33,203 nucleotides of DNA from a virus. Below the pieces are notes generated by a model. The model worked only from the letters and a program-made list of their open reading frames with translations, searched no databases and had not been told where the DNA came from. Positions 5,150 through 33,203 of this stretch are shown here, piece after piece. The stretch's first letter is position 1, and each line of letters begins with the position of its first letter. The translations under genes were made by a program, and so were the position numbers. The stretch lies in UHGV virus genome UHGV-0162190. One strand, written 5' to 3'.

Positions 5150-5161
5150 CGGTCAGGCTCC

Positions 5162-8832: not shown

Positions 8833-8835
8833 AAA

Positions 8836-11571: not shown

Positions 11572-11581
11572 TGTTTCTCAC

Positions 11582-13013: not shown

Positions 13014-13017
13014 GGTT

Positions 13018-13997: not shown

Positions 13998-14080
13998 GCA
14001 TGTGAGATTGCACAATATATAAAAGTTATGCTATCTGGATTCATTTGTAGAACCACCAGACAACATTCAAGGAGAGCGTA

Positions 14081-16383: not shown

Positions 16384-16796
16384 AGTTCCCGCCCCTCAAG
16401 ACGCTGACGACAGGCTTTACATATCAGCCGGAAAAACAGCGACGCCACAAGATAAATCAGCGCGGTAAAAATCCACCCGGCAGCGACCAGCGAGATAAAC
16501 GTCGCCACCATCACCACCAGAGCCGCCGCCCGTCTGCGCCACGGCACCGGCTGCAAAAACAGCGACGTGACAATCTTCACGGCCAGCGATTCCGGCGGCA
16601 GCTCCCGCCCGTAGCGTTCCAGCACATACTCCGTGGCATACACGCCGACACCACCGGCAACCACACAGATAACCGTCGCCAGAATCGCCCAGGTGGCGAC
16701 AAAACTGACGGCCACGCTCTGCGGGTAAATCAGGGACAGTGCCAGCATCAGCGCCAGCGACACGTTCAGCATCAGTGAAAGGGATAATTTCTTCAT
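16371..16796 (-). CDS. lysA: Lysis timing protein LysA (multi-pass membrane protein)
   Basis: 141-aa ORF with several hydrophobic helices, between K and lysB. Confidence 0.75.
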   Translation of the reverse strand: MKKLSLSLMLNVSLALMLALSLIYPQSVAVSFVATWAILATVICVVAGGVGVYATEYVLERYGRELPPESLAVKIVTSLFLQPVPWRRRAAALVVMVATFISLVAAGWIFTALIYLVASLFFRLICKACRQRLEGRELCQS

Positions 16797-16810
16797 GGTG
16801 TTTACTCCGT

Positions 16811-17308
16811 TTAAGCCGGTACGCCGCCGGCGGTACGCCAGACGGTGACCAGTTTTTCCAGTGAATGCTCACGCTGACCGTAACCGGCACCCGGCAGGGA
16901 CGCCCAGATATTGCGACAGCGTGAAATGGCGCGCTCAATGCGTCCCGCCCGGATGTCATCCAGTGCACCGCGTTCGCGGATCAACTGAATGGCGAGCCTG
17001 TCCTGTGACAACGGACTGAAATCCGGCAGGGCAAGCTGTTTGCGGTAGTGCGGCCAGAACAGGTAAAGCTGCTGATAGCGACCGGAGGCCGTGGATTTTT
17101 CACCGCGACGGTTAAACACCTTCGCCGGTCGGCCATGCGCGAACGGGTGGTCACTGTAGTCGGTGAAAATTTCCGGCTTTCCGTCCAGTCCGGTGACTAT
17201 CACGTCATAGCCCCGGTTTTTCGTCAGCGGATGATTCGCCGTCCCTTCGGACACGGCCAGCATGTCGAGAAAGGCGGCGATATTCTGATGCGTGTTAATT
17301 ACCGGCAT
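16811..17308 (-). CDS. K: Endolysin gpK (lysozyme-like)
   Basis: 165-aa ORF immediately downstream of holin Y. Confidence 0.85.
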   Translation of the reverse strand: MPVINTHQNIAAFLDMLAVSEGTANHPLTKNRGYDVIVTGLDGKPEIFTDYSDHPFAHGRPAKVFNRRGEKSTASGRYQQLYLFWPHYRKQLALPDFSPLSQDRLAIQLIRERGALDDIRAGRIERAISRCRNIWASLPGAGYGQREHSLEKLVTVWRTAGGVPA

Positions 17309-17589
17309 TACGGTTTCCCCCTGCCCTTAAAGCGGCGCTGAATGGCAATCTCAATCACCTGATAACCGGCGATACCCAGCATGGAGCCGATGCCGCACAC
17401 CGCAGGCAGTGACAGGTCAGGAAACTGCACCAGAACAACACCGGCAACCATCGAGACAAAACCACCGAGCAACATGCGCCCGATAAACAGACGCGGGGTG
17501 ATGGGTTCACCACCGGCAAGCACCTTGCCGACAACAATCAGCACCCCAATCATGAAAAGCGACAGGACGCTTTTTTCTTCTGCTGTCAT
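17308..17589 (-). CDS. Y: Holin gpY
   Basis: 93-aa ORF with transmembrane helices and a charged C-terminus, upstream of K. Confidence 0.8.
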   Translation of the reverse strand: MTAEEKSVLSLFMIGVLIVVGKVLAGGEPITPRLFIGRMLLGGFVSMVAGVVLVQFPDLSLPAVCGIGSMLGIAGYQVIEIAIQRRFKGRGKP

Positions 17590-17592
17590 GCG

Positions 17593-17796
17593 TTACTCCC
17601 ACAGATTGACAGTTTCAGCCACGGGCGCGGTCTGAACGTCGGGCAGTTCGACGGCGGTGCCGTGTGGCAGCACCGCGCCCAGTTCAGCCAGTCCCGGATT
17701 TGCGGCGAGCACGGTCTCGACCACGCCCTCAGTGCGCCCGTAATACCGGACACAAATGGCGTCGAGCGTGTCGCCCTGTAGCGCAAAGGTCTTCAT
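17593..17796 (-). CDS. X: Tail protein gpX
   Basis: ORF 17593-17865 trimmed to the in-frame ATG (MKTFALQGDTL...), giving 67 aa; that ATG overlaps the L stop (ATGA). Confidence 0.7.
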   Translation of the reverse strand: MKTFALQGDTLDAICVRYYGRTEGVVETVLAANPGLAELGAVLPHGTAVELPDVQTAPVAETVNLWE

Positions 17797-18305
17797 CAGA
17801 TTTGACTCACGATGCAGCGCGGCTTGTCCTGGATACGCGCCACCGCCCAGCGCATATCCCGCCACAGTTCATCAATGGTGCTGTCAATGCTGTCGGCCTT
17901 CTTGTCGCCTTTCGCACTGGCATCCACGCCGCGATAACGCTCATAAAGCGACGCGGTCGCCATCGCACACACGGCGCGCTCGTAGTAAAAAACTTTGATG
18001 CTTTCACCGTCGATGTCGTCCGCCGGAACGTCCGCCAGACGCGTAAAACCGGCGGCAATTTTCTGTTCGCGGTACTCGTACAGCTCCGCATTCGTTTCAG
18101 CCATGCCTGACTTGATGGCCTCACGCAGACGGGCGGGGGCGACGGTCTGCTCAAGGCGCATACGTTCCCGGACGCGCTTCGGGTCGATATCGGGAAAAAA
18201 GAACGTGTTTTTAATCACCGGCTCATCGCCTGCCGGTTGCGGGATGACCACCGTACCCTCACCGGACACGAGAACCTCCTTTCGCGGAATAATCAGCGTC
18301 ATCAT
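17796..18305 (-). CDS. L: Head completion protein gpL
   Basis: ORF 17796-18365 trimmed to the in-frame ATG (MMTLIIP...), giving 169 aa as in P2 L. Confidence 0.75.
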   Translation of the reverse strand: MMTLIIPRKEVLVSGEGTVVIPQPAGDEPVIKNTFFFPDIDPKRVRERMRLEQTVAPARLREAIKSGMAETNAELYEYREQKIAAGFTRLADVPADDIDGESIKVFYYERAVCAMATASLYERYRGVDASAKGDKKADSIDSTIDELWRDMRWAVARIQDKPRCIVSQI

Positions 18306-18404
18306 GACTACCTCTGAAAAGTCGGGCGGTGGACGCCGGTGCAGTGTCAGGTGATTCACCCTCACTGACCGGCGTGCCGCCCTGGCGCGGGGCGCATTTG
18401 GTTG

Positions 18405-19148
18405 TTAACTGGCTTTCTTTTTCGGGCGTCCACGTTTTGCCGGTGTCACGCTCCGGGTCTTACGCGGGGTACGGGTGGCCGCTTTTGGCTGCGGCTCCGG
18501 CTTCGGTTTCAGCTCCCGCTCCAGTCGTTCAATCTCTTTTTTGACGCCTGCCTGACAGTCGAGCTGTGTCGCACGTTGCAGGTGAGCCAGCGCACCGGCG
18601 GCATCACCGGCGTCACGCAGAAACAGACCGGTGATTTTGTGCAGCTTTGCGCGCACTTCATCAGGCATGTCAGCCGTGGCGGTCAGTTCAAGGGTGTCCG
18701 TCAGCAGGCGGGTATCCACGGATTCACCGGCAGCGTGAGCGCGCATGGCCGCAAGCGCCACCTCCTCGGTGAACATGTACGGCGGGGTACGGCGGTGTTT
18801 ACCCGGCATGGTCAGACCGTACTTCAGGGCATAACGGGCAATCTCCAGCGCACCGGCAATATCGCCGGTATCCAGACGCCACAGCATGACCGTCATCAGA
18901 ATGTCATCCTGTGCGCCTTTGCCCTGCTCCAGCACGCCGTTCACCCACGGCAACCAGAACGGCAGCAGTTCGCGTTTTTTCGCGGCCTTCAGCTCTTTTG
19001 AATAAATCGCTTTCAGTGTGCGCTGGTCTGCGGCCAGCTTGACCAGCATCTGCTCATAGACAGTTGCATGTCGCAGCGGGGCGGCTTCCCGCTGCGCGGT
19101 CATCGCTGCCGAGACCCGCATCATGTGGCGCTGTGCGGGACTCGTCAT
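18405..19148 (-). CDS. M: Terminase small subunit gpM
   Basis: 247-aa ORF between N and L with a basic C-terminal tail. Confidence 0.8.
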   Translation of the reverse strand: MTSPAQRHMMRVSAAMTAQREAAPLRHATVYEQMLVKLAADQRTLKAIYSKELKAAKKRELLPFWLPWVNGVLEQGKGAQDDILMTVMLWRLDTGDIAGALEIARYALKYGLTMPGKHRRTPPYMFTEEVALAAMRAHAAGESVDTRLLTDTLELTATADMPDEVRAKLHKITGLFLRDAGDAAGALAHLQRATQLDCQAGVKKEIERLERELKPKPEPQPKAATRTPRKTRSVTPAKRGRPKKKAS

Positions 19149-19151
19149 CGG

Positions 19152-20225
19152 TTACGCTCCCGGCTCTGCGGTCGCCTTAGCCGGTGTGGAGAAATCACCG
19201 ACCTTAATTTTTTCCACCAGGCAACCGGCGGCGTAGTCTTCCACCACGTAATCAATATTCATTGACTCGTAGTTCTCCACGCGGTCGAGTTTCGGGTTTT
19301 CCTCAATCACGCGGCGATGGCTGTCATCCATGTAGTAGATGGACAGGTTTTCCAGCTTCGTGATGAGCATCGCATCCGCCGGGAAGTACGGGACGCGTAC
19401 CGCCGGCAGGTTGCCGATGCGCTTCTGGCTGATGATGACGTCAGCGGCCAGCATTTCGCTGTTGTCCTGCTCCTTGTTAACGATGGGGAAATACTTGTCC
19501 GCCAGTAGCTGACGCCCCACAATCACCACAAGGTCAGGGTCTTCCTGATACCACGGTTCAATCAGGTTGTTGGTCGCATCCATCACCAGTGCGTCGAGGC
19601 TTACATAATCACCGCCCTTACCCACGCGGATAACCTCAGAGGTGGTGTGCCCTTCCTCGTCAGTGACCTTGCTCATCACGCGCGCCGGGGCTTCATTGCG
19701 GTATTTCTGCAGCCAGCCGACCGCCACATCCTGCAGCATCGGATTACTGTTGCGGTCAGAGGTTTCGGCACGCTTCACACCGTTAAAACCGGCCATGATG
19801 AAATCAAGGGACTGGCGTTTGATAATGGCGTTACGGATACGGAGCTGGAAATCCTGATAACGTGCCCACAGGTCAAGCGTTTTGTAGCGGATATAAAAAT
19901 CGAAGTTAATCTGGTCGCATTCGTACTTGTTTGACGCCAGCTTCGAGAAGTCCTTCGGCTGACGCTCGGTGCCACCGGCAGTGTCGGTGGTGCTGGCGAT
20001 TGAGCCGGTGACACCGATACCAATTTTTTCCCCTTTCATTTCGCTGACCGGCACAATGTTGATGCGGGTCAGAAAATCAGAGGACTCCTGCATGGTGTTC
20101 ATCAGGGTCTGGGTGACCGACGGTTCAACGGTGAATTTTTTCGACACATCACCGGCGTCGATGCCGTTCAGTTCGGCAACACGGGACAGGTAGGCATTAA
20201 ATTTAAAGCGGGTTTCCTGGCGCAT
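19152..20225 (-). CDS. N: Major capsid protein gpN
   Basis: 357-aa ORF downstream of scaffold O. Confidence 0.9.
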   Translation of the reverse strand: MRQETRFKFNAYLSRVAELNGIDAGDVSKKFTVEPSVTQTLMNTMQESSDFLTRINIVPVSEMKGEKIGIGVTGSIASTTDTAGGTERQPKDFSKLASNKYECDQINFDFYIRYKTLDLWARYQDFQLRIRNAIIKRQSLDFIMAGFNGVKRAETSDRNSNPMLQDVAVGWLQKYRNEAPARVMSKVTDEEGHTTSEVIRVGKGGDYVSLDALVMDATNNLIEPWYQEDPDLVVIVGRQLLADKYFPIVNKEQDNSEMLAADVIISQKRIGNLPAVRVPYFPADAMLITKLENLSIYYMDDSHRRVIEENPKLDRVENYESMNIDYVVEDYAAGCLVEKIKVGDFSTPAKATAEPGA

Positions 20226-20283
20226 AGTTTTTCCTGAAATTAAGGGTTAATCGTGAAGGTTTTCCCGGACTGGCTGACGCCGG

Positions 20284-21138
20284 TCAGCAGTTCGTCATCA
20301 GGGCGTCACCGCCACCGCCGGTGGCCTTGCTGCGGCGCTGCTGGGTCAGACTTTCGGTGTGGTCGAGACTGTTTTTCAGGCGGGTGAATGCCTGGCTGGT
20401 TTCATCCGCCCTGTCAGTCACCTCCTGCTTAAGTGCGGAAAAGGCAGTTTCCATCTCAGCGAGGCGCTGCTCAGTGGCGCTCAGTTTTTCCTGCACATGT
20501 TCAGCAACAGCGGTCACCGCTTCATGCACGTCATTCAGACGGGCGTCATCGCTGGCCTGTTTGCGGCCAAAAATGGATTTCACCTTTTCGGTCAGGGCGG
20601 TGAACACGGTTTCAGGCAGGTCTTCAAATTCCAGCTCAACGGGCGTTGCCACTGAAATCAGGTTTTCAGGGCTTAATTTGAAGCGGTTCAGGGGGTTGTG
20701 TTTTGCCGTGCGGCAGAATTCCAGGTATTCCGTGCCGAGGCTTGCCGGGTCATCGGTGACGGCCAGCCCCACCAGATAACATTTGCCGGTGTTGGCAAAG
20801 TTCGGCTGAATTTCCATTGAGGTGTAGACCTTCTGCGCGGCCTTGTTCATCGCGATAAGGTCATCGGTCGGGGTGATTTTCGCAAACAGCGCCCATTTGC
20901 CTTTCAGCGCCGAATCATCGTCAATCTTTTCGGCCTTCAGTTCGGCCACATCGCCATAACGCTTAAAAATACCGTCAGGCAGGATGCCGCGCAGATGTTC
21001 CAGGTTAATGCGGCAACCATAGACACGCGGGTCAAAGGTTTCGGCCATTTCCTGAATATCCTGCGCACTGATGACACGCCCGTCACAGGTGTCACCCTCA
21101 ACGCCGATACGAAAGAATTTTGAGACTTTTTTTGCCAT
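20284..21138 (-). CDS. O: Capsid scaffolding protein gpO
   Basis: ORF 20284-21204 trimmed to the in-frame ATG (MAKKVSKF...), giving 284 aa as in P2 O; divergent from P. Confidence 0.8.
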   Translation of the reverse strand: MAKKVSKFFRIGVEGDTCDGRVISAQDIQEMAETFDPRVYGCRINLEHLRGILPDGIFKRYGDVAELKAEKIDDDSALKGKWALFAKITPTDDLIAMNKAAQKVYTSMEIQPNFANTGKCYLVGLAVTDDPASLGTEYLEFCRTAKHNPLNRFKLSPENLISVATPVELEFEDLPETVFTALTEKVKSIFGRKQASDDARLNDVHEAVTAVAEHVQEKLSATEQRLAEMETAFSALKQEVTDRADETSQAFTRLKNSLDHTESLTQQRRSKATGGGGDALMTNC

Positions 21139-21311
21139 TGTCAGGAGTCCTGAATAGTGATTAGAGGAGTCACATGTCGGCATCAGTTTCCCGACGATGC
21201 GCATCCTCCGCCATCAGTCCCGGATGGCTTATCACTGACACAACAGCACCTTAGCGAATCGCGGGGCGCGACTCAGTAGCCTTGCCGTGTATTCATCACG
21301 GCGAGGTATTC
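21139..21311. promoter_or_regulatory. Divergent late-promoter region between O and P
   Basis: Intergenic region between the divergent capsid (O) and terminase (P) operons. In P2 this region holds the Ogr-activated PO and PP promoters. I did not find an unambiguous TGT-N12-ACA activator site by eye. Confidence 0.4.
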
Positions 21312-23084
21312 ATGACCATCACCACAGACACCACTCTTTTACACGACCCGCGTCGTCAGGCGGCGCTGCTGTACTGGCAGGGGTTTTCCGTGCCGCAGAT
21401 TGCCGCCATGTTGCAGATGAAACGCCCGACGGTGCAGAGCTGGAAACAGCGCGACGGCTGGGACAGCGTTGCCCCCATCAGCCGTGTCGAAATGAGCCTG
21501 GAAGCGCGGCTGACCCAGCTCATCATCAAACCGCAGAAAACCGGCGGTGACTTCAAGGAAATTGACCTGCTCGGACGCCAGATTGAACGACTGGCACGGG
21601 TAAACCGTTACAGTCAGACCGGCAACGAGGCAGACCTTAATCCGAACGTCGCTAACCGCAACAAAGGCGGGCGGCGCAAACCGAAAAAGAATTTTTTCAG
21701 TGACGAGGCCATCGAAAAGCTGGAGCAGATTTTCTTTGAGCAGTCTTTCGACTATCAGTTGCACTGGTATCGCGCCGGGCTTGAGCACCGCATCCGCGAT
21801 ATCCTGAAATCCCGCCAGATTGGTGCAACGTTTTATTTTTCCCGCGAGGCGCTACTGCGCGCCCTGAAAACCGGTCATAACCAGATTTTTCTGTCGGCCA
21901 GTAAAACGCAGGCGTATGTGTTCCGCGAATACATCATCGCCTTTGCCCGTCTGGTTGACGTTGACCTGACCGGTGACCCGATTGTCCTGGGCAATAACGG
22001 CGCAAAACTGATTTTTCTCGGCACCAACTCCAACACCGCACAGAGCCATAACGGCGACCTGTACGTCGACGAGATTTTCTGGATCCCGAATTTTCAGGTA
22101 CTGCGTAAGGTGGCATCAGGTATGGCCTCACAGAGTCACCTGCGCTCAACCTATTTCTCCACCCCGTCCACGCTGGCGCACGACGCCTACCCGTTCTGGT
22201 CGGGTGAACTGTTTAACCGGGGACGCGCCAGCGCCGCCGAACGCGTGGAAATCGACGTCAGTCATAACGCCCTTGCCGGTGGGCTTCTCTGTGCGGACGG
22301 CCAGTGGCGGCAGATTGTCACCATTGAGGACGCGCTGAAAGGCGGCTGCACGCTGTTCGACATTGAGCAGCTCAAACGCGAAAACAGCGCCGACGATTTT
22401 AAAAACCTGTTCATGTGTGAATTTGTTGACGACAAGGCGTCGGTGTTCCCGTTCGAGGAGCTGCAACGCTGCATGGTCGACACGCTGGAAGAATGGGAAG
22501 ACTATGCACCCTTTGCCGCCAATCCGTTCGGCTCCCGCCCGGTATGGATTGGTTACGACCCGTCACACCGTGGCGACAGCGCCGGATGCGTGGTGCTGGC
22601 ACCGCCGGTGGTGGCCGGTGGCAAATTCAGAATACTTGAGCGTCACCAGTGGAAAGGCATGGACTTTGCCACCCAGGCGGAATCCATCCGCAAACTCACC
22701 GAAAAATATAACGTCGAATACATCGGTATTGATGCCACCGGCCTCGGTGTCGGCGTGTTCCAGCTCGTGCGCTCGTTCTATCCCGCCGCGCGCGATATCC
22801 GCTACACACCGGAAATGAAAACCGCAATGGTGCTCAAGGCAAAAGACGTCATCCGCCGTGGCTGTCTGGAATATGACGTCAGCGCCACCGACATCACCAG
22901 CTCGTTTATGGCTATCCGCAAGACCATGACCAGCAGCGGACGCAGCGCCACCTATGAGGCCAGCCGCAGCGAGGAAGCCAGCCACGCCGACCTCGCCTGG
23001 GCGACCATGCACGCCCTGTTAAATGAGCCACTCACCGCCGGTATCAGCACCCCGCTGACATCCACCATTCTGGAGTTTTACTGA
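21312..23084 (+). CDS. P: Terminase large subunit (ATPase/nuclease) gpP
   Basis: ORF 21282-23084 trimmed to the first ATG (MTITTDTT...), which has a GAGGT Shine-Dalgarno, giving 590 aa as in P2 P. Confidence 0.9.
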   Translation: MTITTDTTLLHDPRRQAALLYWQGFSVPQIAAMLQMKRPTVQSWKQRDGWDSVAPISRVEMSLEARLTQLIIKPQKTGGDFKEIDLLGRQIERLARVNRYSQTGNEADLNPNVANRNKGGRRKPKKNFFSDEAIEKLEQIFFEQSFDYQLHWYRAGLEHRIRDILKSRQIGATFYFSREALLRALKTGHNQIFLSASKTQAYVFREYIIAFARLVDVDLTGDPIVLGNNGAKLIFLGTNSNTAQSHNGDLYVDEIFWIPNFQVLRKVASGMASQSHLRSTYFSTPSTLAHDAYPFWSGELFNRGRASAAERVEIDVSHNALAGGLLCADGQWRQIVTIEDALKGGCTLFDIEQLKRENSADDFKNLFMCEFVDDKASVFPFEELQRCMVDTLEEWEDYAPFAANPFGSRPVWIGYDPSHRGDSAGCVVLAPPVVAGGKFRILERHQWKGMDFATQAESIRKLTEKYNVEYIGIDATGLGVGVFQLVRSFYPAARDIRYTPEMKTAMVLKAKDVIRRGCLEYDVSATDITSSFMAIRKTMTSSGRSATYEASRSEEASHADLAWATMHALLNEPLTAGISTPLTSTILEFY

Positions 23085-24118
23085 TGAGCAAGAAAAAAGG
23101 GAAAACACCGCGACCTGCGGCAAAAAAAATGACTGCCAGCGCCCCGAAAATGGAGGCATTCACCTTTGGTGAGCCGGTGCCGGTACTCGACCGCCGTGAT
23201 ATTCTGGATTACGTCGAGTGCATCAGTAACGGCAGATGGTATGAGCCACCGGTCAGCTTTACCGGTCTGGCAAAAAGCCTGCGTGCTGCCGTGCATCACA
23301 GCTCACCGATTTACGTCAAACGTAATATTCTGGCTTCAACGTTTATCCCGCACCCGTGGCTTTCCCAGCAGGATTTCAGCCGCTTTGTGCTGGATTTTCT
23401 GGTGTTCGGTAATGCGTTTCTGGAAAAGCGCTACAGCACCACCGGTAAGGTCATCAGACTGGAAACCTCACCGGCAAAATATACCCGCCGTGGCGTGGAG
23501 GAGGATGTTTACTGGTGGGTGCCGTCCTTCAACGAGCCGACATCTTTCGCGCCCGGCTCCGTGTTTCACCTGCTGGAGCCGGATATCAATCAGGAGCTGT
23601 ACGGCCTGCCGGAATATCTCAGCGCCCTTAATTCTGCCTGGCTGAATGAGTCGGCCACGCTGTTCCGCCGCAAGTATTACGAAAACGGCGCTCATGCCGG
23701 ATACATCATGTACGTCACCGATGCCGTGCAGGATCGCAACGATATCGAAATGCTCCGCGAAAACATGGTGAAGTCGAAAGGCCGCAACAACTTTAAAAAT
23801 CTGTTTCTCTACGCCCCACAGGGAAAAGCCGACGGCATTAAAATTATCCCGCTCAGTGAAGTGGCAACGAAGGACGATTTTTTTAATATCAAAAAAGCCA
23901 GCGCCGCTGACCTGCTGGACGCGCACCGCATCCCCTTTCAGTTGATGGGCGGCAAGCCGGAGAACGTCGGGTCGCTGGGTGATATTGAGAAAGTGGCAAA
24001 GGTCTTTGTCCGCAATGAGCTTATCCCGCTACAGGACAGGATCCGCGAGATAAACGGCTGGCTCGGTCAGGAGGTCATCCGCTTTAAAAACTACTCACTG
24101 GACACTGACAACGGCTGA
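23084..24118 (+). CDS. Q: Portal protein gpQ
   Basis: 344-aa ORF; its start overlaps the P stop (TGATGA); last gene before cos. Confidence 0.9.
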   Translation: MSKKKGKTPRPAAKKMTASAPKMEAFTFGEPVPVLDRRDILDYVECISNGRWYEPPVSFTGLAKSLRAAVHHSSPIYVKRNILASTFIPHPWLSQQDFSRFVLDFLVFGNAFLEKRYSTTGKVIRLETSPAKYTRRGVEEDVYWWVPSFNEPTSFAPGSVFHLLEPDINQELYGLPEYLSALNSAWLNESATLFRRKYYENGAHAGYIMYVTDAVQDRNDIEMLRENMVKSKGRNNFKNLFLYAPQGKADGIKIIPLSEVATKDDFFNIKKASAADLLDAHRIPFQLMGGKPENVGSLGDIEKVAKVFVRNELIPLQDRIREINGWLGQEVIRFKNYSLDTDNG

Positions 24119-24123
24119 ACATC

Positions 24124-24145
24124 GCCGCCTGCGGGCGGCTTTTTT
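24124..24145 (+). terminator. Rho-independent terminator of the P-Q operon
   Basis: GCCGCC-TGCG-GGCGGC hairpin followed by a run of T residues, about 6 nt after the Q stop. Confidence 0.65.
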
Positions 24146-24286
24146 ACAACCCGCCATCACGCCCTCACACGCTCACCACCGCGCAAAACAGCCCGCAGAC
24201 ACACCGACGCCCAGGCAGGCCAAGTAAACGCCTTCACGACGCGCTCAGACGCTGAAAAAATAAAATCAGCACCACCGCCAGCGCGC

Positions 24287-24305
24287 AGTGCTTTCCCCGC
24301 CTCGC
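24287..24305. other. cos: cos cohesive-end site (P2-type 19-nt sequence)
   Basis: GTGCTTTCCCCGCCTCGCC is the exact reverse complement of the P2 cohesive end GGCGAGGCGGGGAAAGCAC as I recall it; it lies just downstream of Q, as expected. Confidence 0.8.
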
Positions 24306-24455
24306 CCGCCCGCTTCATGAAGCGGTTTGAATGCAGTTGTATACCGACGCAGACTTCCTGCCAGTTCTAGCTACTCATAACAAAAAAAAACATTACAGAT
24401 GAATGCAAAATCATGCAACTAATGAAGGCGTACAGGCTAGGTGAGAAAATAAATG

Positions 24456-25256
24456 CTATTTCATCAGTCCTATAAAAGCTGCTGTCATGCTACCCAATGC
24501 ACCAATAGCAGCAAATAACGTTGCCCAAAACATGCTTTTTTGGCTACGAATATTCTCATTATATCGTTGTTCTTCATTATTGAAGTGATTTAACGTATTA
24601 ATTGCTTTTCCAGTGGGCTTATAACCATCTCGAGTCTTTGAAATGTCCCCACTCTCTACAAGGGAATCCAGACATAAGCGAAGTTCTTTTATGAGTCGAG
24701 AATAATCATCATGGTAGATCCATAAACGTCCTGCCACATCATTCATAATTAGAGTCTCACTGAATGGTTTTTCCCCTTGCTGCTCTCGATAAATTCTGAC
24801 AATTGCAGCCAATACCGTCATTACATCGGTTATCTCCTGCTTGCGTTGTCGATACAAATACTTCTCACGACTTAGCTTTTTATTTTGACGATTCGCTATT
24901 CTTCTAAATCTAAGCACATTAAAAAAAGATAAGTCGTCCAATGAGTCAAACTTCAATTCATGCGCATGATAATAATAAATTCCAGAAAAGGAATTTGATG
25001 TAAGTCGTTCTGGTTTAAGAATTGTATCAATATTGAAAGTTTTATTCTGATGATTCCACTTCTTAACCTTTATAATTCCGTTTGAATAACTATCAAAAAG
25101 ATAGTCATTACCCTCGTCATCCTTAATGTAAACGGAATACATATCGTAATGAATGGCACTCTCATACATTAAACTAATTTTGCCATTTTCAGGAGTCTTC
25201 TTTGACTCAAAAACTTTTAGAAACTTTACAACATCAACTTTATTTTTATACCTCAT
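24456..25256 (-). CDS. Hypothetical C-terminally membrane-anchored protein (266 aa); candidate effector of the RT cassette or an independent defence gene
   Basis: AT-rich ORF with an AAGG Shine-Dalgarno. Soluble N-terminal domain of about 240 aa, then a single C-terminal hydrophobic helix (FWATLFAAIGALGSMTAAFIGL). Lies 165 nt downstream of the RT on the same strand. Confidence 0.6.
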   Translation of the reverse strand: MRYKNKVDVVKFLKVFESKKTPENGKISLMYESAIHYDMYSVYIKDDEGNDYLFDSYSNGIIKVKKWNHQNKTFNIDTILKPERLTSNSFSGIYYYHAHELKFDSLDDLSFFNVLRFRRIANRQNKKLSREKYLYRQRKQEITDVMTVLAAIVRIYREQQGEKPFSETLIMNDVAGRLWIYHDDYSRLIKELRLCLDSLVESGDISKTRDGYKPTGKAINTLNHFNNEEQRYNENIRSQKSMFWATLFAAIGALGSMTAAFIGLMK

Positions 25257-25324
25257 ACATTCAGCCTTGACTGTAAACCACCATATTAAATTATTGCACT
25301 AACGACTCGTACCACTTATTGTTC

Positions 25325-25367
25325 AACCCAGTCAGAATTGAAAGCAAACTTCTGCACTAACTGGGTT
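25325..25367 (-). other. Structured element between the RT gene and the downstream membrane-protein gene
   Basis: 8-bp outer stem (AACCCAGT / ACTGGGTT) enclosing a 5-bp inner stem (CAGAA / TTCTG). No U-tract. Read directly from the sequence. Confidence 0.35.
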
Positions 25368-25421
25368 ACCATCATAATATATCGATACTAATAAAATCCG
25401 ATATCATTATATTTTAGTGTA

Positions 25422-26372
25422 TTAAACCGATGTATTTGCTTTCAACGTCAATACTTTCGATCTGTAACGTTTTTCAATAACCCCCATTGAATATAAACGA
25501 CCAAATAATTTCTTTGCTGTTCTTGTATCTTTAGCTTGTTCTACATCTTTTATTATTTTCCAAAGCTCTATTTCTCTAGCCATAAGATAATGCTGTTCGT
25601 TCCTAACCTTTAAGCTATCCCCAAATACTATAACTCCTGTCACCAGTTTAGGCTTATCCCCAGCATATAATTTCGTTTTAGTTGGATGCATCACGTGTCC
25701 ATGCTTATTAATAATCTTACGAATCACGCTGCAAAACAATCGATTTACATTATCTCCAGAAAAAGTAAGATCATCGACATAAACTGTCATTTTCACACGA
25801 AACTTCTCACAAAGTTGATTCATTTCATCAAACATTCTGGAATTTGCAAAATATGCTAATGGCATACTAATCCGACTACCCGTTGGCAATCGTTCATGAC
25901 AGGTACATATATGAGATAAAATATCAGCCACATCTGGCGACATTTTCATTATTGAGAAAAAGAAAGAAAATATCATTTCTCTTGTTGTTGACGGAAAAAA
26001 AGATTTAATATCTGTAGTCATCAACTTCTGATGATTGAGATGTGCTTTAGCATTTGTTATGTTAGAGCAACTTTTTTTACCAGAGTGCAAATACTCTGGC
26101 ATAGCTATACGCAATAATAAACTCGCAATACGTGTATGCACTACATCTAATTTTTCTAAAGGCTTTTGTATTTTCCGTATTTTATTTTTTTTAGAAAGCT
26201 GTTCAAAAATAGAGTAATTACCCTCATCCCTCTTCAAAGCTGATAGATCATTGATACTAACGCAGAGCAAGTTAGCCAACTTTTTTTTACTTTTAAGTTT
26301 ATAAAGTGGCGAATCCGTAATAGGATAAGATTTATTTTTAGTTGAAACCTTCAGTTTAATCCTTTTTTTCAT
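25422..26372 (-). CDS. Reverse transcriptase, retron-type (316 aa)
   Basis: Motifs in order: K-rich finger motif (SKKNKIRKIQKP); NAKAH (retron NAxxH) followed by DIKSFFPS; LPTGSRISMPLAYFAN; catalytic YVDDLTFSG; HPTKTKLY; and KLVTGVIV (retron VTG motif). Small size, no maturase or endonuclease domain. ATG overlaps the upstream HTH gene. Confidence 0.88.
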   Translation of the reverse strand: MKKRIKLKVSTKNKSYPITDSPLYKLKSKKKLANLLCVSINDLSALKRDEGNYSIFEQLSKKNKIRKIQKPLEKLDVVHTRIASLLLRIAMPEYLHSGKKSCSNITNAKAHLNHQKLMTTDIKSFFPSTTREMIFSFFFSIMKMSPDVADILSHICTCHERLPTGSRISMPLAYFANSRMFDEMNQLCEKFRVKMTVYVDDLTFSGDNVNRLFCSVIRKIINKHGHVMHPTKTKLYAGDKPKLVTGVIVFGDSLKVRNEQHYLMAREIELWKIIKDVEQAKDTRTAKKLFGRLYSMGVIEKRYRSKVLTLKANTSV

Positions 26373-26658
26373 TTCTTTTACTTACCCACTCTAGTATATC
26401 CAGAACTTTCCCTGCCAGTTTTAAACGTAAACTTTTGGATAACCGTCCTTGTGTCCCTAATGATTCTGAAAAAAAGACTAAAGAGGATACTGGCATGTCG
26501 AAATGGGAAGCATAACGCTGTAAAATATCAATCGACGGCACCCATAGTCCGCTTTCAATCTCTACTATTCTGCTTTTTGGAATACCTAAAGATGATGATA
26601 AGTCAACTATTGATTCTTTATGGTATTGCCTTATTAAACGAAGGGCTTTATGCAACAT
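26356..26658 (-). CDS. XRE-family helix-turn-helix protein (about 100 aa), translationally coupled to the RT
   Basis: HTH signature ...ESIVDLSSSLGIPKSRIVEIESGLWVPSIDILQRYASHF. Start set at the second ATG, which has a GGAG Shine-Dalgarno (the first ATG is at 26670). Its 3' end overlaps the RT start. Confidence 0.75.
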   Translation of the reverse strand: MLHKALRLIRQYHKESIVDLSSSLGIPKSRIVEIESGLWVPSIDILQRYASHFDMPVSSLVFFSESLGTQGRLSKSLRLKLAGKVLDILEWVSKRNEKKD

Positions 26659-26694
26659 AGGCAACTCCATCTTGTTGAAACTAGGGAGGACGCA

Positions 26695-26850
26695 TTACTC
26701 ATCTCCCCCTTCAAAGAAGTCAACTGCGCGAGTGATCCAATAAAGTAGTCTAATAAGCCACTTAATTACACCCCAAGCGTTAGGAGTCTTCTTTTTCCGG
26801 TTTAACTTGTTTTGCGCCTGCTGTTCGTTGGTTACTTTATCATTTTTCAT
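26695..26850 (-). CDS. Possible small protein (51 aa, MKNDKVTNEQQ...) with a hydrophobic C-terminus, upstream of the HTH gene
   Basis: Internal ATG of ORF 26695-26988 preceded by GGAGCAGG. Basic stretch followed by WGVIKWLIRLLYWI. The N-terminal part of the listed 97-aa ORF overlaps structured non-coding-like sequence and is probably not translated. Confidence 0.35.
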   Translation of the reverse strand: MKNDKVTNEQQAQNKLNRKKKTPNAWGVIKWLIRLLYWITRAVDFFEGGDE

Positions 26851-27100
26851 GACCTGCTCCTTATGTCCACGGTGTGCAAACGATATGTCTGCTCCAACAC
26901 CATGGCTCGCCCTCATAAGGATGAGATTGAACAGCACCAGCTCCCTGCTCCACGAACCCTTTGTCGCCCAAAGGGTTCGAATACCCATACGCTATACCGC
27001 TTGAATCAGAGACTCCTGTCGCTGACAGAGGCGTTGCGCGGGGTAAATGTTAGAAAGCATTAGCTTTCCACGGGCAATAAATACCCAATTGATGGCGATT
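26851..27100 (-). ncRNA. Candidate retron non-coding RNA (msr-msd) or structured leader of the RT operon; boundaries approximate
   Basis: Non-coding stretch upstream of the RT operon on the same strand. Perfect 11-bp GC-rich hairpin (CGAACCCTTTG-5 nt-CAAAGGGTTCG, about 26953-26979) plus further short stems (CTGTC-GCT-GACAG about 27015-27027; GAAAGC-ATTA-GCTTTC about 27054-27069). I could not identify a1/a2 flanking repeats by eye. Confidence 0.3.
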
Positions 27101-27292
27101 TATCTCACTAACTAACCAATGATTGAATCATACCAAGTAAACCGTTGTATTTGATCTCTCCTTATATAATTTTTTGTTATTAATCAATATAAATAAATAA
27201 CAAAAAGAAATATAGCTAATTTTCATCCGTCTCATCACAATAAATATCAACAAATCAAGAATATCGTTTGATTATCTAGTCTTTCCAATTCA

Positions 27293-29581
27293 TTAAAATA
27301 AAAACAATGCTTCATCTTCAATTCCCGGCCAAACATCAGCAACCGGATACATGAATTTTTTCCCGTCATAATTTACGGTCGCGCCACGCGCCAGCGCCTC
27401 AAGCTCCCATCGCTGAGGGCTGATACCGTTCTGAGCAAGGTCAACGCGGATACGGGTAATTTGCATTCGTTCCGACCTGGTCAGCCTGGCTGATGGCGCT
27501 ATTTCATGCGGTTTTAACGGGCTTCCGTCTCTTTGCTGACGGTTTGGTGTTCTCAGTCCGTGTTTTAATGCACCCCTGAGCGCCCTCACGACCTCCGGGT
27601 CACTCCATTCGATGACACCGTCATCAACCAGATTAAGCACTGCTGCGGCGTGTTCAGAAGGCGTGGGAGCCGGTGACGAAGTATCACCACCGGTGAGCTT
27701 TCCACAGTTATTGACAGGACTCCGAGGCGCGGCGATGCCGCTTTTTAAAGTCAAAGGCTCAACGACCGGAACTTTCGGCACAATGCGCCAGTCCGTCGTT
27801 CTGGTGATATGAATATGACGCGCGCCGAGATGCGGCGCGTAAATGCCGACCACTCTCTCGACTTCTTCCTCGTACTCGTTAACTTCATCCGACGGACTAC
27901 GGGCAACCCTGACAGTCTGACAATCGCGCGGAACATTTGCCCCACCCTGCGCGCTGATATACAACGCAAAATCACCACTGTCTGCGGCAGCGCGTGCAGC
28001 CTCGACGCGTTCGTCAAACTCATCAGCAATGCTGACGCCGCGAGGCAATTTGCGTAGTTCACGGTAAGCCCCCATTGTCGGCAGGCCAACCGTTTTAAAT
28101 TGCGGAATGCGCCACGTTGATGCCCATGCGGTAACAGCCGCGGCAGTGTCTTTCAGCGGCCTGCCGGTATCGTTATCGAGCTGACCATCCAGTGCATAGC
28201 CATCGATGTTTTTTGAGATGTATTTCGCGATATACCCCGCAGCACCGCCCCGGTTAAGGTGTTTTGCCTGAAAACGGTTTCGCGCAGCTCCTCTTTCGTC
28301 GCCATCCTCTTTGAGCGCGTAGCGACGCATGATTTCAATAATCTGGTTACGCTGGCGTGGATTACAAAAAAGCATCATATGCCAGTGCGGCGTTCCGTCG
28401 TGGTGTGGTTCAACAACACGCAAACCGTAGGCCTGTAAATCATTATCCTTGAATGCCGTGCGCATCAGGCTCCAGATACGGCAGAGATAACGCTGCGCAT
28501 CCTTTGGATTAAATGCCTCATCGTTCCAGCCGTGATTTAGCTGGACGGTTTTACTTTCGCCTTTTCTGACCTGACGTGTCGGGTGATACTTTGACGGCGC
28601 GGTCAGCGTGATAAACATCCCCACATCACCCTCTGCGGCGGCGTAACGCTCAATACCGGCAATGGTGTTCATCAGCTCCATCCGGCGAATTTCAGGATTA
28701 GAAATACTGCCCATCACCTTACTGATAAGGTCGATGCGCTCGCCGGTTTCCCTGTTTTCAAGGTCACACGATTTAAGAAATTCCAGATTTGCCTGGCGGC
28801 GTGCACGCACATCACGAATGGCATGTTTACTGGCATAAGGAGAACGGTCTTTATTGACCTCCCCGACAGCAATCAGTAACGCCTCATGCCAGCGCATACG
28901 CTGGCCTTTAAGCTGATGAGTCCACCACTCATCGTTAAACAGGCGGGCAATGGCAGAATATGCCTGCCTCGTGGTCATCTGTCCTTTACGGTATTTTTTC
29001 CAGTAGAGCGGGGAAATATTGAAAGCACGTGCAGCGCCAGCAACATGACCATAGAGGTGAGCCTGCGCCTCATCCGTAAACAGCGATTCTTTTTCGCCAT
29101 GTGCATCAACCCAGGCATCGCAGAGTTCCTCATACATCATGAAAAGCTGCGATGAGATACGGGCAGCAAACTTTTTCAGCTCCTTGTCATTCATCCCCGG
29201 CAGGCGCGCATAGTGGTCACGCTCTGCCAGAAACAGCAACGACGCGTCGGTGTTCATTTCATGGCGCTGATTAACGCGCTCAATGCGCGGCCATAAACGA
29301 CGCTGAAAAGTGGATGTGAGGAAATAAAACCCGTGCACCGGGCTTTTATTGCGCCGGATGTAGTCATAGCGTGAAGTAAACAGCGAGCGCAAAAAGTAAG
29401 GCAGGCGATTAATCGTGGATAAAACACCTTGCACCTGACGCATCTCGTCACGTGTAAGGGGTCTTTCGCGCCCGACGGCCTCGCGTGGCGCGTTCCATGC
29501 ATAAGCACCGGTAAACGTCTCACCGGTGCCTGCGGCAAATGCTGACGGAGGGACAAAACGCCCGGAGGCTTTAACGGCCAT
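27293..29581 (-). CDS. A: Replication initiator gpA (rolling-circle nickase)
   Basis: ORF 27293-29623 trimmed to the ATG at MAVKASGRF, giving about 762 aa. HUH-type motif (EPHHDGTPHWHMMLF) and catalytic tyrosine region (AGYIAKYISK). Confidence 0.88.
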   Translation of the reverse strand: MAVKASGRFVPPSAFAAGTGETFTGAYAWNAPREAVGRERPLTRDEMRQVQGVLSTINRLPYFLRSLFTSRYDYIRRNKSPVHGFYFLTSTFQRRLWPRIERVNQRHEMNTDASLLFLAERDHYARLPGMNDKELKKFAARISSQLFMMYEELCDAWVDAHGEKESLFTDEAQAHLYGHVAGAARAFNISPLYWKKYRKGQMTTRQAYSAIARLFNDEWWTHQLKGQRMRWHEALLIAVGEVNKDRSPYASKHAIRDVRARRQANLEFLKSCDLENRETGERIDLISKVMGSISNPEIRRMELMNTIAGIERYAAAEGDVGMFITLTAPSKYHPTRQVRKGESKTVQLNHGWNDEAFNPKDAQRYLCRIWSLMRTAFKDNDLQAYGLRVVEPHHDGTPHWHMMLFCNPRQRNQIIEIMRRYALKEDGDERGAARNRFQAKHLNRGGAAGYIAKYISKNIDGYALDGQLDNDTGRPLKDTAAAVTAWASTWRIPQFKTVGLPTMGAYRELRKLPRGVSIADEFDERVEAARAAADSGDFALYISAQGGANVPRDCQTVRVARSPSDEVNEYEEEVERVVGIYAPHLGARHIHITRTTDWRIVPKVPVVEPLTLKSGIAAPRSPVNNCGKLTGGDTSSPAPTPSEHAAAVLNLVDDGVIEWSDPEVVRALRGALKHGLRTPNRQQRDGSPLKPHEIAPSARLTRSERMQITRIRVDLAQNGISPQRWELEALARGATVNYDGKKFMYPVADVWPGIEDEALFLF

Positions 29582-29846
29582 ATGAGCCAAAAGCCTCTGA
29601 ACAACGCCTGCTGAGTTGCTCAACCTGCGCGTTTAAATCAGCAAAAGACTTTGCGCTTCCGGTCAGAATATCGTGATGCATCAGGCCGGAAACGAGCTGG
29701 CTTAATTTCGGGTAATAACCAACCACTGCCAGCCATTCCTGACCGGCGTTTTTACCGCTTTCCGCTCTCTTTTTCTCGTGGAGAATAAACTGAAAGCTGT
29801 CACTGGTAACGACATAACGTTCGCCAATTTCAATACGAATACTCAT
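29571..29846 (-). CDS. Small early protein (91 aa), P2 orf83-equivalent position
   Basis: ORF immediately upstream of A in the early operon. Confidence 0.55.
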   Translation of the reverse strand: MSIRIEIGERYVVTSDSFQFILHEKKRAESGKNAGQEWLAVVGYYPKLSQLVSGLMHHDILTGSAKSFADLNAQVEQLSRRCSEAFGSYGR

Positions 29847-30067
29847 GCCGTTCTCCGGTAATGTTTGTTTTTTGCTTCAAAGACTGACTGACAGGAAACA
29901 CAACGCGTGGCTGACGGATAAGCCGCACGACGGGCAGCAGGTATTGGCGCGTCACACTCTTCGCAAACCAGCGCAGAAGCACCGCAATGTTTTACCCTTG
30001 CCGCGTTAATCTGGCGCTCCAGTAATTCAGCCTGTTGTTCCTGAATAAAATCTACGTTGTCCGGCAT
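29843..30067 (-). CDS. TraR/DksA-family C4 zinc-finger protein (74 aa)
   Basis: CxxC...CxxC spacing (CEECDAPIPAARRAAYPSATRCVSCQ) in a small early-operon ORF. Confidence 0.7.
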   Translation of the reverse strand: MPDNVDFIQEQQAELLERQINAARVKHCGASALVCEECDAPIPAARRAAYPSATRCVSCQSVFEAKNKHYRRTA

Positions 30068-30069
30068 TA

Positions 30070-30372
30070 TCAGCTCCTTTTATCGTTAAGTTTCCTGGAT
30101 ACATCAGCGCAATAACTGGCAAGTTCTGTCGTTAATTTTGTCAGTTCATCCACGGAGGAAATTTGCTTGTGGAATACAGCGCGTTTAACAAGTAAATTGA
30201 CCACATCAGACAGGAGGTTTAATTCATTCTGATAAATCGCGATAACAGATTCAGTTATGTCGCGTTTTTCTTTATCAAGACAAAGTTGAATAAGAGACAA
30301 ATCACCATTTTCCATAACGGCGATTTTTAAGGCGTTATTCAGTAATACAACTGAATGAGAACAGGACATCAA
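30070..30372 (-). CDS. Hypothetical early protein (100 aa)
   Basis: ORF in the B-to-A interval of the early operon; overlaps its neighbours by a few nucleotides. Confidence 0.55.
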
Positions 30373-30626
30373 AGTACCTCCCCGCGAGACAATCCGATAT
30401 TGTGAAATTTTTCCGACTCCTGACTGAGCAGCTCGACTATCTCCACGCGGGATAACTCCGCCTTTGTGATGTGGCGAATCATGGCGTCAAGATGAGAAGA
30501 AAAGCGCGTCGCCGCGTCGGCCTGTGCTTCGGTTCTGGTCTGTTGCAGCAGTAATGCGTATTTACCGCACTGATTTTCAGAAACTGTATGCATGACTTTC
30601 TCCAGGCAAAAAGAAGCCCCGCACAA
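30369..30626 (-). CDS. Hypothetical early protein (85 aa)
   Basis: ORF in the B-to-A interval of the early operon. Confidence 0.55.
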
Positions 30627-30656
30627 TTAAGTGCGTTAAAAACTCTGGTTACTTAC

Positions 30657-31157
30657 TTAATGCAGATATTGCTCTGGTTTTACCGATGTCAGAATTGTCG
30701 GTACATACTCAAACAGGCTGAACAATTCACGTAATGCACGGAATAAAGCATCACGCCAGTAACATGATTCTTCATTAATGCGCCAGTAGGGCTGATTGAA
30801 TTCTTTTTCTGTCAATCCCGCATGCATAAATAAAGTACGACGCTGACTGACTGTTAAAAAACTAATATATGCATACTCACTTGCACCGACCTGACGGCGT
30901 TTTGAGAATGCCCCACGCAGTTCATCAATTGCACAAACCAGCCGTTCACGTTCGACGTCGTTCATTTCTTCAAAACGCATCGTTGCGTGACGTTGTTTTA
31001 ACTGCGCATGAAAGCAAACCGTTAGCCGTTCGCGCTCCATCATCTGATTATAATAATCACATGTCTCCTGCCAGCGAGGGACGGCAAGATGCTTGCCAAT
31101 TATCCGGCGCATAGCTGCTGGCTGTTTTTCGACGAGATTGAGCGTCATCACTGTCAT
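30657..31157 (-). CDS. B: Replication protein gpB (helicase loader)
   Basis: 166-aa ORF between cox and A, P2 B length. Confidence 0.8.
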   Translation of the reverse strand: MTVMTLNLVEKQPAAMRRIIGKHLAVPRWQETCDYYNQMMERERLTVCFHAQLKQRHATMRFEEMNDVERERLVCAIDELRGAFSKRRQVGASEYAYISFLTVSQRRTLFMHAGLTEKEFNQPYWRINEESCYWRDALFRALRELFSLFEYVPTILTSVKPEQYLH

Positions 31158-31348
31158 TTCCAGACCCTCCGGCTTTTCAGAAAGGTCAGAGCCTTCTTTA
31201 ACGGACTCTGTTTTTTGGTGCGGATAATGATTCCCTTACGCCCCTTACCGTGGGTGATGGTGAAGTCAATCGCCCTAGGGCTTTCGTTACGCAATAACTG
31301 AGCAATACAACGAGGCTCGTTCATACGGTTCTCCTTAACGTGGTTCAC
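31154..31348 (-). CDS. Small hypothetical protein (64 aa), P2 orf78-equivalent position
   Basis: ORF between cox and B; overlaps both. Confidence 0.45.
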   Translation of the reverse strand: MNHVKENRMNEPRCIAQLLRNESPRAIDFTITHGKGRKGIIIRTKKQSPLKKALTFLKSRRVWK

Positions 31349-31610
31349 CGAGACCTAACCACATCAACCAGCCGTCACGAATCTCTTTAGGGCGGCTTTC
31401 ATAAGCCAGTTTTAGTCCGTTATTCCATGCCGGAAGGTATACCCAATATTCACCTGCACGACCTGAAGCTGATTGTGGATCGGTCATATCAATTACAGGC
31501 AGCTTTCCTTTATCGATCATCCGACGAACCGCTCCTGTCGATTTTCCTATTAGTTTTGCGAACTCCTGATAAGGAATCGCATCAGTCATGAGTGTTACTT
31601 GCTTGCTCAT
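31335..31610 (-). CDS. cox: Cox (excisionase and repressor of the lysogenic promoter)
   Basis: 91-aa basic ORF, first gene of the early operon, divergent from C. Confidence 0.8.
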   Translation of the reverse strand: MSKQVTLMTDAIPYQEFAKLIGKSTGAVRRMIDKGKLPVIDMTDPQSASGRAGEYWVYLPAWNNGLKLAYESRPKEIRDGWLMWLGLGEPR

Positions 31611-31691
31611 GTCGTCCCCCAGCCCTCATGAATTGCGTTTAATGCCTTATAATGCCTTTTAGTGCCCACATCCAAGCACTAAACAATCTAC

Positions 31692-31721
31692 ATCTAAACT
31701 AAATACTATTGAGATCTAAAC
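31692..31721. promoter_or_regulatory. Immunity operator/promoter region: two direct repeats ATCTAAAC spaced 22 bp start to start
   Basis: Direct repeats read from the sequence immediately upstream of the C start; consistent with the P2-type C operator (directly repeated half-sites around the early promoter). Confidence 0.5.
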
Positions 31722-31724
31722 ACC

Positions 31725-32024
31725 ATGTCAAACACGATAAGCGAGAAGATAGTCTTAATGCGAAAATCAGAGTATTTGAGCAGACAACAACTTGCTGATT
31801 TAACAGGGGTTCCGTATGGCACGCTGAGTTACTATGAAAGTGGTCGTTCAACACCTCCAACAGATGTCATGATGAACATCCTGCAGACCCCACAATTCAC
31901 CAAATACACTTTATGGTTCATGACCAATCAGGTCGCTCCTGAGTCCGGGCAAATTGCGCCCGCTCTCGCACACTTTGGGCAAAACGAAACAACGTCGCCC
32001 CACTCCGGTCAAAAGACTGGTTAA
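31725..32024 (+). CDS. C: Immunity repressor C
   Basis: 99-aa ORF with an N-terminal HTH (LSRQQLADLTGVPYGTLSYYESG), divergent from cox and upstream of int. Confidence 0.85.
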   Translation: MSNTISEKIVLMRKSEYLSRQQLADLTGVPYGTLSYYESGRSTPPTDVMMNILQTPQFTKYTLWFMTNQVAPESGQIAPALAHFGQNETTSPHSGQKTG

Positions 32025-32139
32025 CAATTCATCGTGAATATATTCATCACAAGTGCCTACTATTGGTGGCTAAATTTCAGCCACCACGAAAAAAGCGATT
32101 AGTAGTCGCAAAAAAACACACCACTCGGAGGGTTTTCTG

Positions 32140-33153
32140 ATGGCAATCAAAAAACTCGATGATGGTCGATATGAAGTGGACATCCGCCCTACTGGACGTA
32201 ATGGAAAACGCATCCGTAGGAAGTTTGATAAGAAAAGCGAAGCTGTCGCTTTCGAGAAATACACGTTGTACAACCACCACAATAAAGAATGGCTATCAAA
32301 ACCAACAGATAAGCGACGTCTGTCGGAGCTGACACAGATCTGGTGGGATTTAAAGGGTAAACACGAAGAGCATGGGAAATCTAATCTTGGAAAAATTGAA
32401 ATCTTCACAAAAATAACGAATGACCCATGCGCATTTCAAATTACGAAATCGCTTATCAGCCAGTACTGCGCCACCCGAAGAAGTCAGGGTATTAAACCTT
32501 CGAGTATCAATCGTGATTTAACATGTATTAGCGGCATGTTTACAGCCCTGATTGAAGCGGAGTTATTCTTTGGTGAGCACCCTATCAGAGGGACAAAAAG
32601 GCTTAAGGAGGAAAAACCAGACACAGGCTATCTCACGCAGGAAGAAATTGCCTTACTGCTTGCTGCTCTTGACGGCGACAACAAAAAGATTGCGATTCTT
32701 TGCCTGAGTACTGGAGCACGTTGGGGAGAAGCAGCTCGTTTGAAAGCAGAAAATATCATCCATAACCGCGTCACGTTTGTTAAAACGAAAACAAACAAAC
32801 CACGCACCGTCCCGATCTCAGAGGCTGTTGCCAAAATGATCGCGGATAACAAACGAGGTTTTTTATTCCCTGATGCTGATTACCCTCGCTTCAGACGAAC
32901 AATGAAAGCAATAAAACCGGATTTGCCAATGGGGCAAGCCACACATGCACTAAGGCACAGCTTTGCCACTCATTTCATGATTAATGGAGGAAGTATTATC
33001 ACGCTACAACGGATACTAGGTCACACGCGGATTGAGCAAACTATGGTTTACGCTCATTTTGCGCCAGAGTACCTTCAGGACGCCATTTCTCTTAATCCGC
33101 TAAGAGGTGGTACTGAGGCCGAGAGTGTCCACACAGTGTCCACAGTAGAGTAA
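32140..33153 (+). CDS. int: Tyrosine integrase
   Basis: 337-aa ORF with the C-terminal catalytic region (HALRHSFATHF...LGHTRIEQTMVYAHF), downstream of C. Confidence 0.9.
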   Translation: MAIKKLDDGRYEVDIRPTGRNGKRIRRKFDKKSEAVAFEKYTLYNHHNKEWLSKPTDKRRLSELTQIWWDLKGKHEEHGKSNLGKIEIFTKITNDPCAFQITKSLISQYCATRRSQGIKPSSINRDLTCISGMFTALIEAELFFGEHPIRGTKRLKEEKPDTGYLTQEEIALLLAALDGDNKKIAILCLSTGARWGEAARLKAENIIHNRVTFVKTKTNKPRTVPISEAVAKMIADNKRGFLFPDADYPRFRRTMKAIKPDLPMGQATHALRHSFATHFMINGGSIITLQRILGHTRIEQTMVYAHFAPEYLQDAISLNPLRGGTEAESVHTVSTVE

Positions 33154-33203
33154 CGTTTAAGGGCTTTCAGTGGTAATTTATGCCGCTCAAACCCGCATTG
33201 TAC

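Follow-up and report, generated by a model that had tools for sequence, protein, structure and literature searches.

A P2-type cos region beside probable type VI retron cargo in a Peduovirus prophage: probable packaging function and evidence of recent spread

The stretch between the portal gene Q and the adjoining cargo locus of UHGV virus genome UHGV-0162190 raises two questions: does it hold an intact packaging site, and could the prophage around it still form phage particles and spread? The stretch covers positions 24119-24455 of the window, that is, of the whole 33,203 nucleotides analysed. A sequence-only reading had recognised a P2 cohesive-end sequence in it and had taken the prophage to be inducible, probably functional and able to spread with its cargo. 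Comparison with P2 and its relatives indicates that 24119-24455 is very probably the packaging-site (cos) region of a complete Peduovirus (P2-type) prophage of E. coli, P2-like in function.

The cohesive end and the conserved cos core

A pattern search found GGCGAGGCGGGGAAAGCAC as a single exact match in the window, on the minus strand at 24288-24306. The same 19 nucleotides are bases 1-19 of the P2 reference NC_001895, where the annotation reads 'cosL; left cohesive end', and the P4 record likewise opens with them. Two further records deposited from cos onward, fiAA91-ss (in which cosL is annotated) and P24A7b, align with their base 1 at window position 24306. The cohesive end named in the sequence-only reading is thus the published P2 sequence, and its exact match in the window stands, although the position given for it (about 24287-24305) was one base off. 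The features of the region are as follows.

24124-24145, plus strand: tQ, the rho-independent terminator of the P-Q operon (22 of 22 positions as in P2 tQ; also found in a terminator scan)
24281-24339, minus strand: conserved cos core of 59 bp, in which the 19-mer is flanked by 33 nt toward the cargo and 7 nt toward Q (alignment with P2, P4 and 186)
24288-24306, minus strand: 19-nt cohesive end, the predicted staggered cut site of the terminase (exact match to P2 cosL)
24403-24417, minus strand: distal TGCAT-N5-TGCAT, a candidate site of terminase recognition (its two repeats are 101 and 111 nt away from the cleavage site)

Along the window, the end of Q at 24118 is followed by tQ, by cos and, from about 24340, by the cargo, and the layout in P2 is identical. 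As in P2, cos lies past the portal gene and its terminator and adjoins the A-side accessory locus. Its placement just downstream of the P-Q terminator had been read correctly, cos being 142 nt beyond tQ in the window as in P2. Over the 190 nt that run from cos toward Q (19-mer, spacer and tQ), identity to P2 is 89%. Across the Q-cos spacer of another prophage, in NZ_CP070914, RefSeq annotates an ORF as 'vacuolating cytotoxin domain', which is spurious.

The circularised cos junctions of P2, P4 and 186 were aligned with the window, and six isolated Peduovirus phages were added later. Within the 59-bp core, the window shows 7 differences from P2 and 7 from P4; P2 and P4 are themselves 6 positions apart, and P2 and 186 are 10 apart. 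Because 7 differing positions compare with 6, the divergence of the window core is about that between the P2 and P4 sites, which are cross-packaged. According to a passage in PMC9594776, which cites Ziermann & Calendar 1990, the P2 and P4 cos sites have 55 bp conserved; a flanking core of about 55 bp common to P2 and P4 is present in the window as the block 24281-24339. Among 107 IMG/VR sequences, information content is high from -36 to +26, a span in which the positions from -30 to +19 were fixed or partly fixed by the search pattern. Judged by these alignments, the cos region is intact well beyond the 19-mer, and the whole of it lies within 24119-24455, with variable cargo only afterwards.

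One core variant of the window, TGCATTC for TGCATTA, is shared with the isolated phages 569R9 and GMS190. The 7-mer CTTCATG (the TT variant) alters two positions that are C in nine other aligned cos sites. It is rare, with 2 IMG/VR contigs carrying it, and is absent from all 102 matched phage records. The 7-mer is nevertheless naturally polymorphic: 19 variants occur in about 120 IMG/VR P2/P4 elements, and the same two positions are among those changed. The TT variant creates a perfect 16-nt palindrome, CCGCTTCATGAAGCGG, which was considered as a conserved hairpin and rejected, being conserved neither in P2, P4 and 186 nor in the isolated phages.

TGCAT repeats lie on the cargo side of cos. 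Among 90 unique IMG/VR P2/P4 right arms, a TGCAT is found 29 nt from cos in 85, at 100-102 nt in 81 and at 110-112 nt in 65. The window has all three, on the minus strand at 24331-24335, 24403-24407 and 24413-24417, and TGCAT is aligned in P2, 186 and P4 despite unrelated intervening sequence. It is tentatively proposed that the repeats form a recognition element for gpM, the small subunit of the terminase, equivalent to cosB; such an element would fix the inner edge of the cargo hotspot. If this were true, the packaging signal would physically limit the swapping of cargo in the cos-proximal defence hotspot. A cosB-like role of TGCAT may already be implicit in Ziermann & Calendar 1990. Fixed TGCAT distances of about 29, 101, 111 and 124 nt on the cargo side recur across P2, P4, 186 and about 90 distinct IMG/VR elements (loci L030-L149).

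Genes, cis-acting sites and cargo of the prophage

The 42 P2 proteins were compared with the window by tblastn. Counterparts were found for 38 of them, all full length, and 36 of these are 88-100% identical to P2, with orf30 (80%) and the mosaic tail fibre H lower. The essential P2 genes (Q, P, O, N, M, L, X, Y, K, R, S, V, W, J, I, H, G, FI, FII, E, E', T, U, D, A, B, cox, C and int) are all full length and, apart from H, 91-100% identical, which bears out the earlier claim that every late gene is full length. The non-essential genes old, tin, orf91 and fun(Z) are the sole P2 genes replaced in the window. The main operons and genes are listed below.

50-6352, minus strand: F operon, with FI, FII, E/E', T, U and D (full length, 98-99% identity to P2)
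8305-14000, minus strand: V operon, with V, W, J, I, H and G (V, W, J, I and G full length, 91-99%)
14938-21141, minus strand: O operon, with O, N, M, L, X, Y (holin), K (endolysin), lysA, lysB, lysC, R and S (full length, 93.8-100%)
18405-19148, minus strand: M, the small (endonuclease) subunit of the terminase (98.4% identity to P2 M, 247/247 aa)
21312-23084, plus strand: P, the large subunit of the terminase (100% identity to P2 P, 590/590 aa)
23084-24118, plus strand: Q, the portal protein (98.8% identity to P2 Q, 343/344 aa)
27293-31610, minus strand: early operon, with cox, orf78, B, orf80-83 and A, the replication endonuclease, with ori inside (full length)
31725-32024, plus strand: C, the immunity repressor (99.0% identity to P2 C)
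32140-33153, plus strand: integrase (99.7% identity to P2 Int)

Both subunits of the cognate terminase, gpM and gpP, are therefore encoded in cis with the cos site. Identity to P2 in the early operon is mostly 97-100%, with orf81 at 88%. The tail fibre gene H (8836-11571, minus strand) encodes a 911-aa mosaic, the N terminus of which is 85% and the C terminus 52% identical to P2 H (669 aa); its middle part is foreign and it has no internal stop. Given this mosaic with a foreign middle, the receptor specificity is probably unlike that of P2.

The cis-acting sites were also compared with P2. The pP/pO promoters with their activator site match at 121 of 121 positions, the O-operon attenuator at 19 of 19, the pV region at 77 of 78, the E/E' slippery (frameshift) region at 41 of 41, the Pe/Pc operator region at 110 of 111 and the ori nick region at 46 of 46. 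The late promoter pF, which adjoins the fun(Z) hotspot, has diverged (35 of 46) and keeps the activator dyad TGT-N12-CCA in register with P2 pF and 186 pJ. At the level of sequence, the mapped cis sites are all conserved, the diverged pF excepted. The window lacks an equivalent of the P2 terminator tV, since replaced cargo follows G there. These comparisons demonstrate both the sequence identity of the components and the P2-like architecture.

The cargo occupies two loci. At the fun(Z)-locus hotspot, between FI and G, two genes stand in place of fun(Z); the locus next to cos replaces old, tin and orf91.

6714-7439, plus strand: 241-aa cargo protein (phrog_31894)
7618-8082, minus strand: 154-aa cargo protein (phrog_19013)
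24456-27080, minus strand: cos-proximal hotspot cargo in place of P2 old/tin/orf91 (probable type VI retron and a 266-aa protein)
24456-25256, minus strand: 266-aa protein, directly downstream of the retron reverse transcriptase and adjoining cos (phrog_7611 only, a function-unknown family)
25422-26372, minus strand: retron reverse transcriptase, RT (PADLOC RT_VI, 2.5e-106; Pfam RVT_1)
26356-26670, minus strand: retron HTH protein (PADLOC HTH_VI, 2.5e-31)
about 26900-27080, minus strand: candidate msr-msd ncRNA (structured, fold z-score -2.9)

By its clade VI RT and adjacent HTH gene, together with the candidate ncRNA, the cos-proximal cargo is classed as a probable type VI retron. When the whole window was scanned against Rfam at gathering thresholds, nothing was returned, the candidate retron ncRNA included. 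The candidate ncRNA overlaps the N-terminal part of a mechanically called 97-aa ORF (26695-26988, phrog_5826), of which RefSeq annotates only a 51-aa product. The 266-aa protein accompanies the retron cassette in two different P2-like backbones and may act as the retron effector or be cargo in its own right. The 266-aa, 241-aa, 154-aa and orf30-like proteins gave no match in Pfam, NCBIfam or PADLOC and belong only to PHROG families without an assigned function.

Both ends of the window fall within the prophage. The left end is 49 nt beyond the D stop, whereas in P2 ogr begins 82 nt beyond it; the right end is 50 nt beyond the int stop, whereas in P2 the att core is reached only 79 nt beyond it. 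For this reason the window contains neither ogr nor either att core. Exact-protein look-ups led to public draft contigs identical to both window ends. Four of them (L007, L009, L010 and L011) are 100% identical to window 1-7213, L015 is 100% identical to 15422-33203, and so is L019 over its 9,393 nt. Outside the window itself, the contigs identical to 1-7213 encode a 72-aa Ogr equal to P2 Ogr, and in identical contigs the element is bounded at either side by the P2 att core, TAAAAAATAAGCCCGTGTAAGGGAGATT, with yegQ and yegR as its neighbours. The core-to-core length, calculated by hand from coordinates, is 33,611 bp compared with 33,574 bp for circular P2, that is, within 0.1%, and a genome of this size fits the P2 capsid. 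The completeness of the prophage rests on these identical public contigs, the window itself being without ogr and the att cores. On the ogr side, the P-arm stretch with the IHF site (L007 7520-7565) shows about 6 differences from P2, TTTCATTGTATTACGCG compared with TTTCAATTTATTGTACG.

Particle production, spread and induction

Going by established P2 biology, the likely route to a particle is the following. Repression by C would be lost spontaneously and Cox would shut off Pc, after which Int and Cox would excise the prophage through the att cores. Excision would have to precede packaging of the phage genome, because cos lies mid-map in the integrated prophage. The excised circle would be replicated by A, which would nick ori for rolling-circle replication, and by B, and Ogr would turn on the four late operons from pP, pO, pV and pF. 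The gpM/gpP terminase would then recognise cos on circular DNA, probably via the core and the TGCAT repeats, and its predicted nicks, staggered by 19 nt at 24288-24306, would leave 5' cohesive ends. One genome of about 33.6 kb, cargo included, would be packed through the Q portal.

Population evidence for recent spread comes from the contigs that join the prophage to its chromosome. When L007, L009, L010 and L011 are compared (positions 1-9150), they differ from one another on the prophage side by 0-1 mismatch in 6,592 nt. On the adjacent yegQ side, all pairs but L007/L010 (5 mismatches) show 22-29 mismatches in 1,558 nt (1.3-1.9%), the first of them about 160 nt outside the att core. Because a near-identical prophage thus sits in chromosomes 1.3-1.9% apart, recent horizontal spread between lineages is indicated, and recent infection of different lineages appears to explain it best. 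Furthermore, in NZ_CP070914 (L006, locus 28173-31300) the retron and cos cassette is 100% identical over 3.1 kb, in the backbone of another P2-like prophage, which lies at pflB/pflA and has a different integrase, Cox and tail fibre. The identical cassette in a second backbone points to cassette exchange between P2-like backbones. Conversely, NZ_CP076706 and UPEC132 have the backbone in common with the window and carry different cargo. Among complete E. coli RefSeq genomes, none matches the window over its full length.

The earlier view that the prophage is probably functional and can be transmitted with its cargo gains support from the full-length genes and the cis sites, and further support from ogr and the att cores in the contigs, the P2-like size and the divergent chromosomal backgrounds. 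On this sequence evidence, the prophage quite probably yields infectious particles.

One alternative is a prophage inactivated recently or subtly defective, with its genes intact and a defect in cis that blocks virions, in which cos would be a relic. Candidates for such a defect are the rare TT variant in the cos core, absent from all the isolated phages examined, pF with only 35 of 46 positions as in P2, and the P-arm IHF region unlike that of P2. The first of these loses weight from the natural polymorphism of the 7-mer, whose 19 variants in about 120 IMG/VR elements include changes at the same two positions, and from the cos cores of 186 and P4, which also differ from P2 and yet are packaged by P2-family terminases. 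Similarly, the diverged pF has its activator dyad kept. Its presence, almost unchanged, in chromosomes that diverge by 1.3-1.9% speaks for very recent transfer of the prophage, and the identical cos arm and retron cassette recur in the second P2-like backbone at pflB/pflA. A defective prophage is accordingly rated unlikely, and the reading of a functional prophage is preferred.

Where the sequence-only reading went too far is in calling this prophage inducible. C (99%) and Cox (100%) are those of P2, and there is neither a Tum antirepressor nor a 186 CI homologue: a six-frame tblastn of the window gave no credible match to 186 Tum or 186 CI, the best match (E = 0.02) falling in intergenic sequence that separates the T and E' coding regions. 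In the title of Bertani & Bertani 1970 (cited as ref. 24 in PMC5009727), P2 stands as the classic non-inducible temperate phage, and P2 lysogens release phage spontaneously in a Cox-dependent manner (PMC3936717). Low-level, P2-like spontaneous release is thus what would be expected of this prophage, not SOS induction.

A further alternative would be a prophage that responds to SOS or mitomycin, as do 186 and the tum-bearing prophage of E. coli HS, since mitomycin C induces some P2-like prophages (PMC11195241). The window does contain a few generic matches to CTG-N10-CAG, one of them a perfect CTGT-N8-ACAG (7053-7068). As a LexA operator, the latter was rejected, since it lies inside the 241-aa cargo ORF rather than ahead of a gene, and chance alone would yield about one such match. 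In the P2-like prophage of E. coli HS, induction by mitomycin C strictly requires tum and LexA cleavage (PMC11195241), whereas the search for Tum and 186 CI gave nothing credible here and C and Cox are 99-100% those of non-inducible P2. SOS inducibility is therefore considered highly improbable. With a P2-type C-Cox switch and no Tum, induction by mitomycin C would probably be negative even if the phage were fully functional. Since a negative result would be expected of a functional phage, failed induction would be no valid refutation of functionality.

That the 19-mer is present by chance or is non-functional has a negligible probability, and chance occurrence is already refuted: 100 dinucleotide-preserving shuffles of the window gave no match to it with up to 3 mismatches allowed, and its position, its flanks and the cognate terminase genes are all conserved.

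Relation to P2, P4, 186 and the cos-proximal hotspot

The prophage is a member of Peduovirus, a common and already known element, and neither it nor its cos site is new. The closest isolated phages are 96-97% identical over 80-91% of a 24.9-kb query (window 8300-33203), and P2-like cos regions were matched in 2150 of 5426 complete E. coli genomes (~40%). For annotation, the value of the locus lies in exact cos coordinates and in a complete P2-type phage that was probably mobile recently. Such a prophage would be able to move the type VI retron, along with two other cargo loci, from one E. coli lineage to another, and could serve as helper for P4-like satellites that have the same cos.

In P2 itself (NC_001895) the 19-mer is identical, the genes follow the same order and cos likewise lies between Q/tQ and the accessory locus on the A side. 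The late promoters (with pF diverged), the C/Cox switch, ori, int and, as seen in the identical contigs, the att core are also the same. The prophage differs from P2 in that the type VI retron cassette replaces old/tin/orf91, two other genes replace fun(Z), and the tail fibre H is longer and mosaic; further differences are the divergence of pF and 7 substitutions within the 59-bp cos core.

The cos site of satellite P4 has the same 19-mer, core block and distal TGCAT repeats. P4 is without structural and terminase genes and depends on a helper, whereas the window prophage encodes its own. Phage 186 (Eganvirus) and the tum-bearing prophage of E. coli HS share homologous late genes and the cos architecture, and the 186 19-mer differs from that of the window at 2 positions. 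In contrast to the window prophage, which is without these genes, 186 has CI, CII, Apl and a LexA-controlled tum and is SOS-inducible.

In P4, too, a defence hotspot directly adjoins cos (PMC9122126). The cos-proximal defence hotspot of P2, between gpA and gpQ, holds variable cargo that includes retrons (Rousset et al. 2022, PMC9122126), and the cargo of the window is one more arrangement beside the 1,650 reported there.
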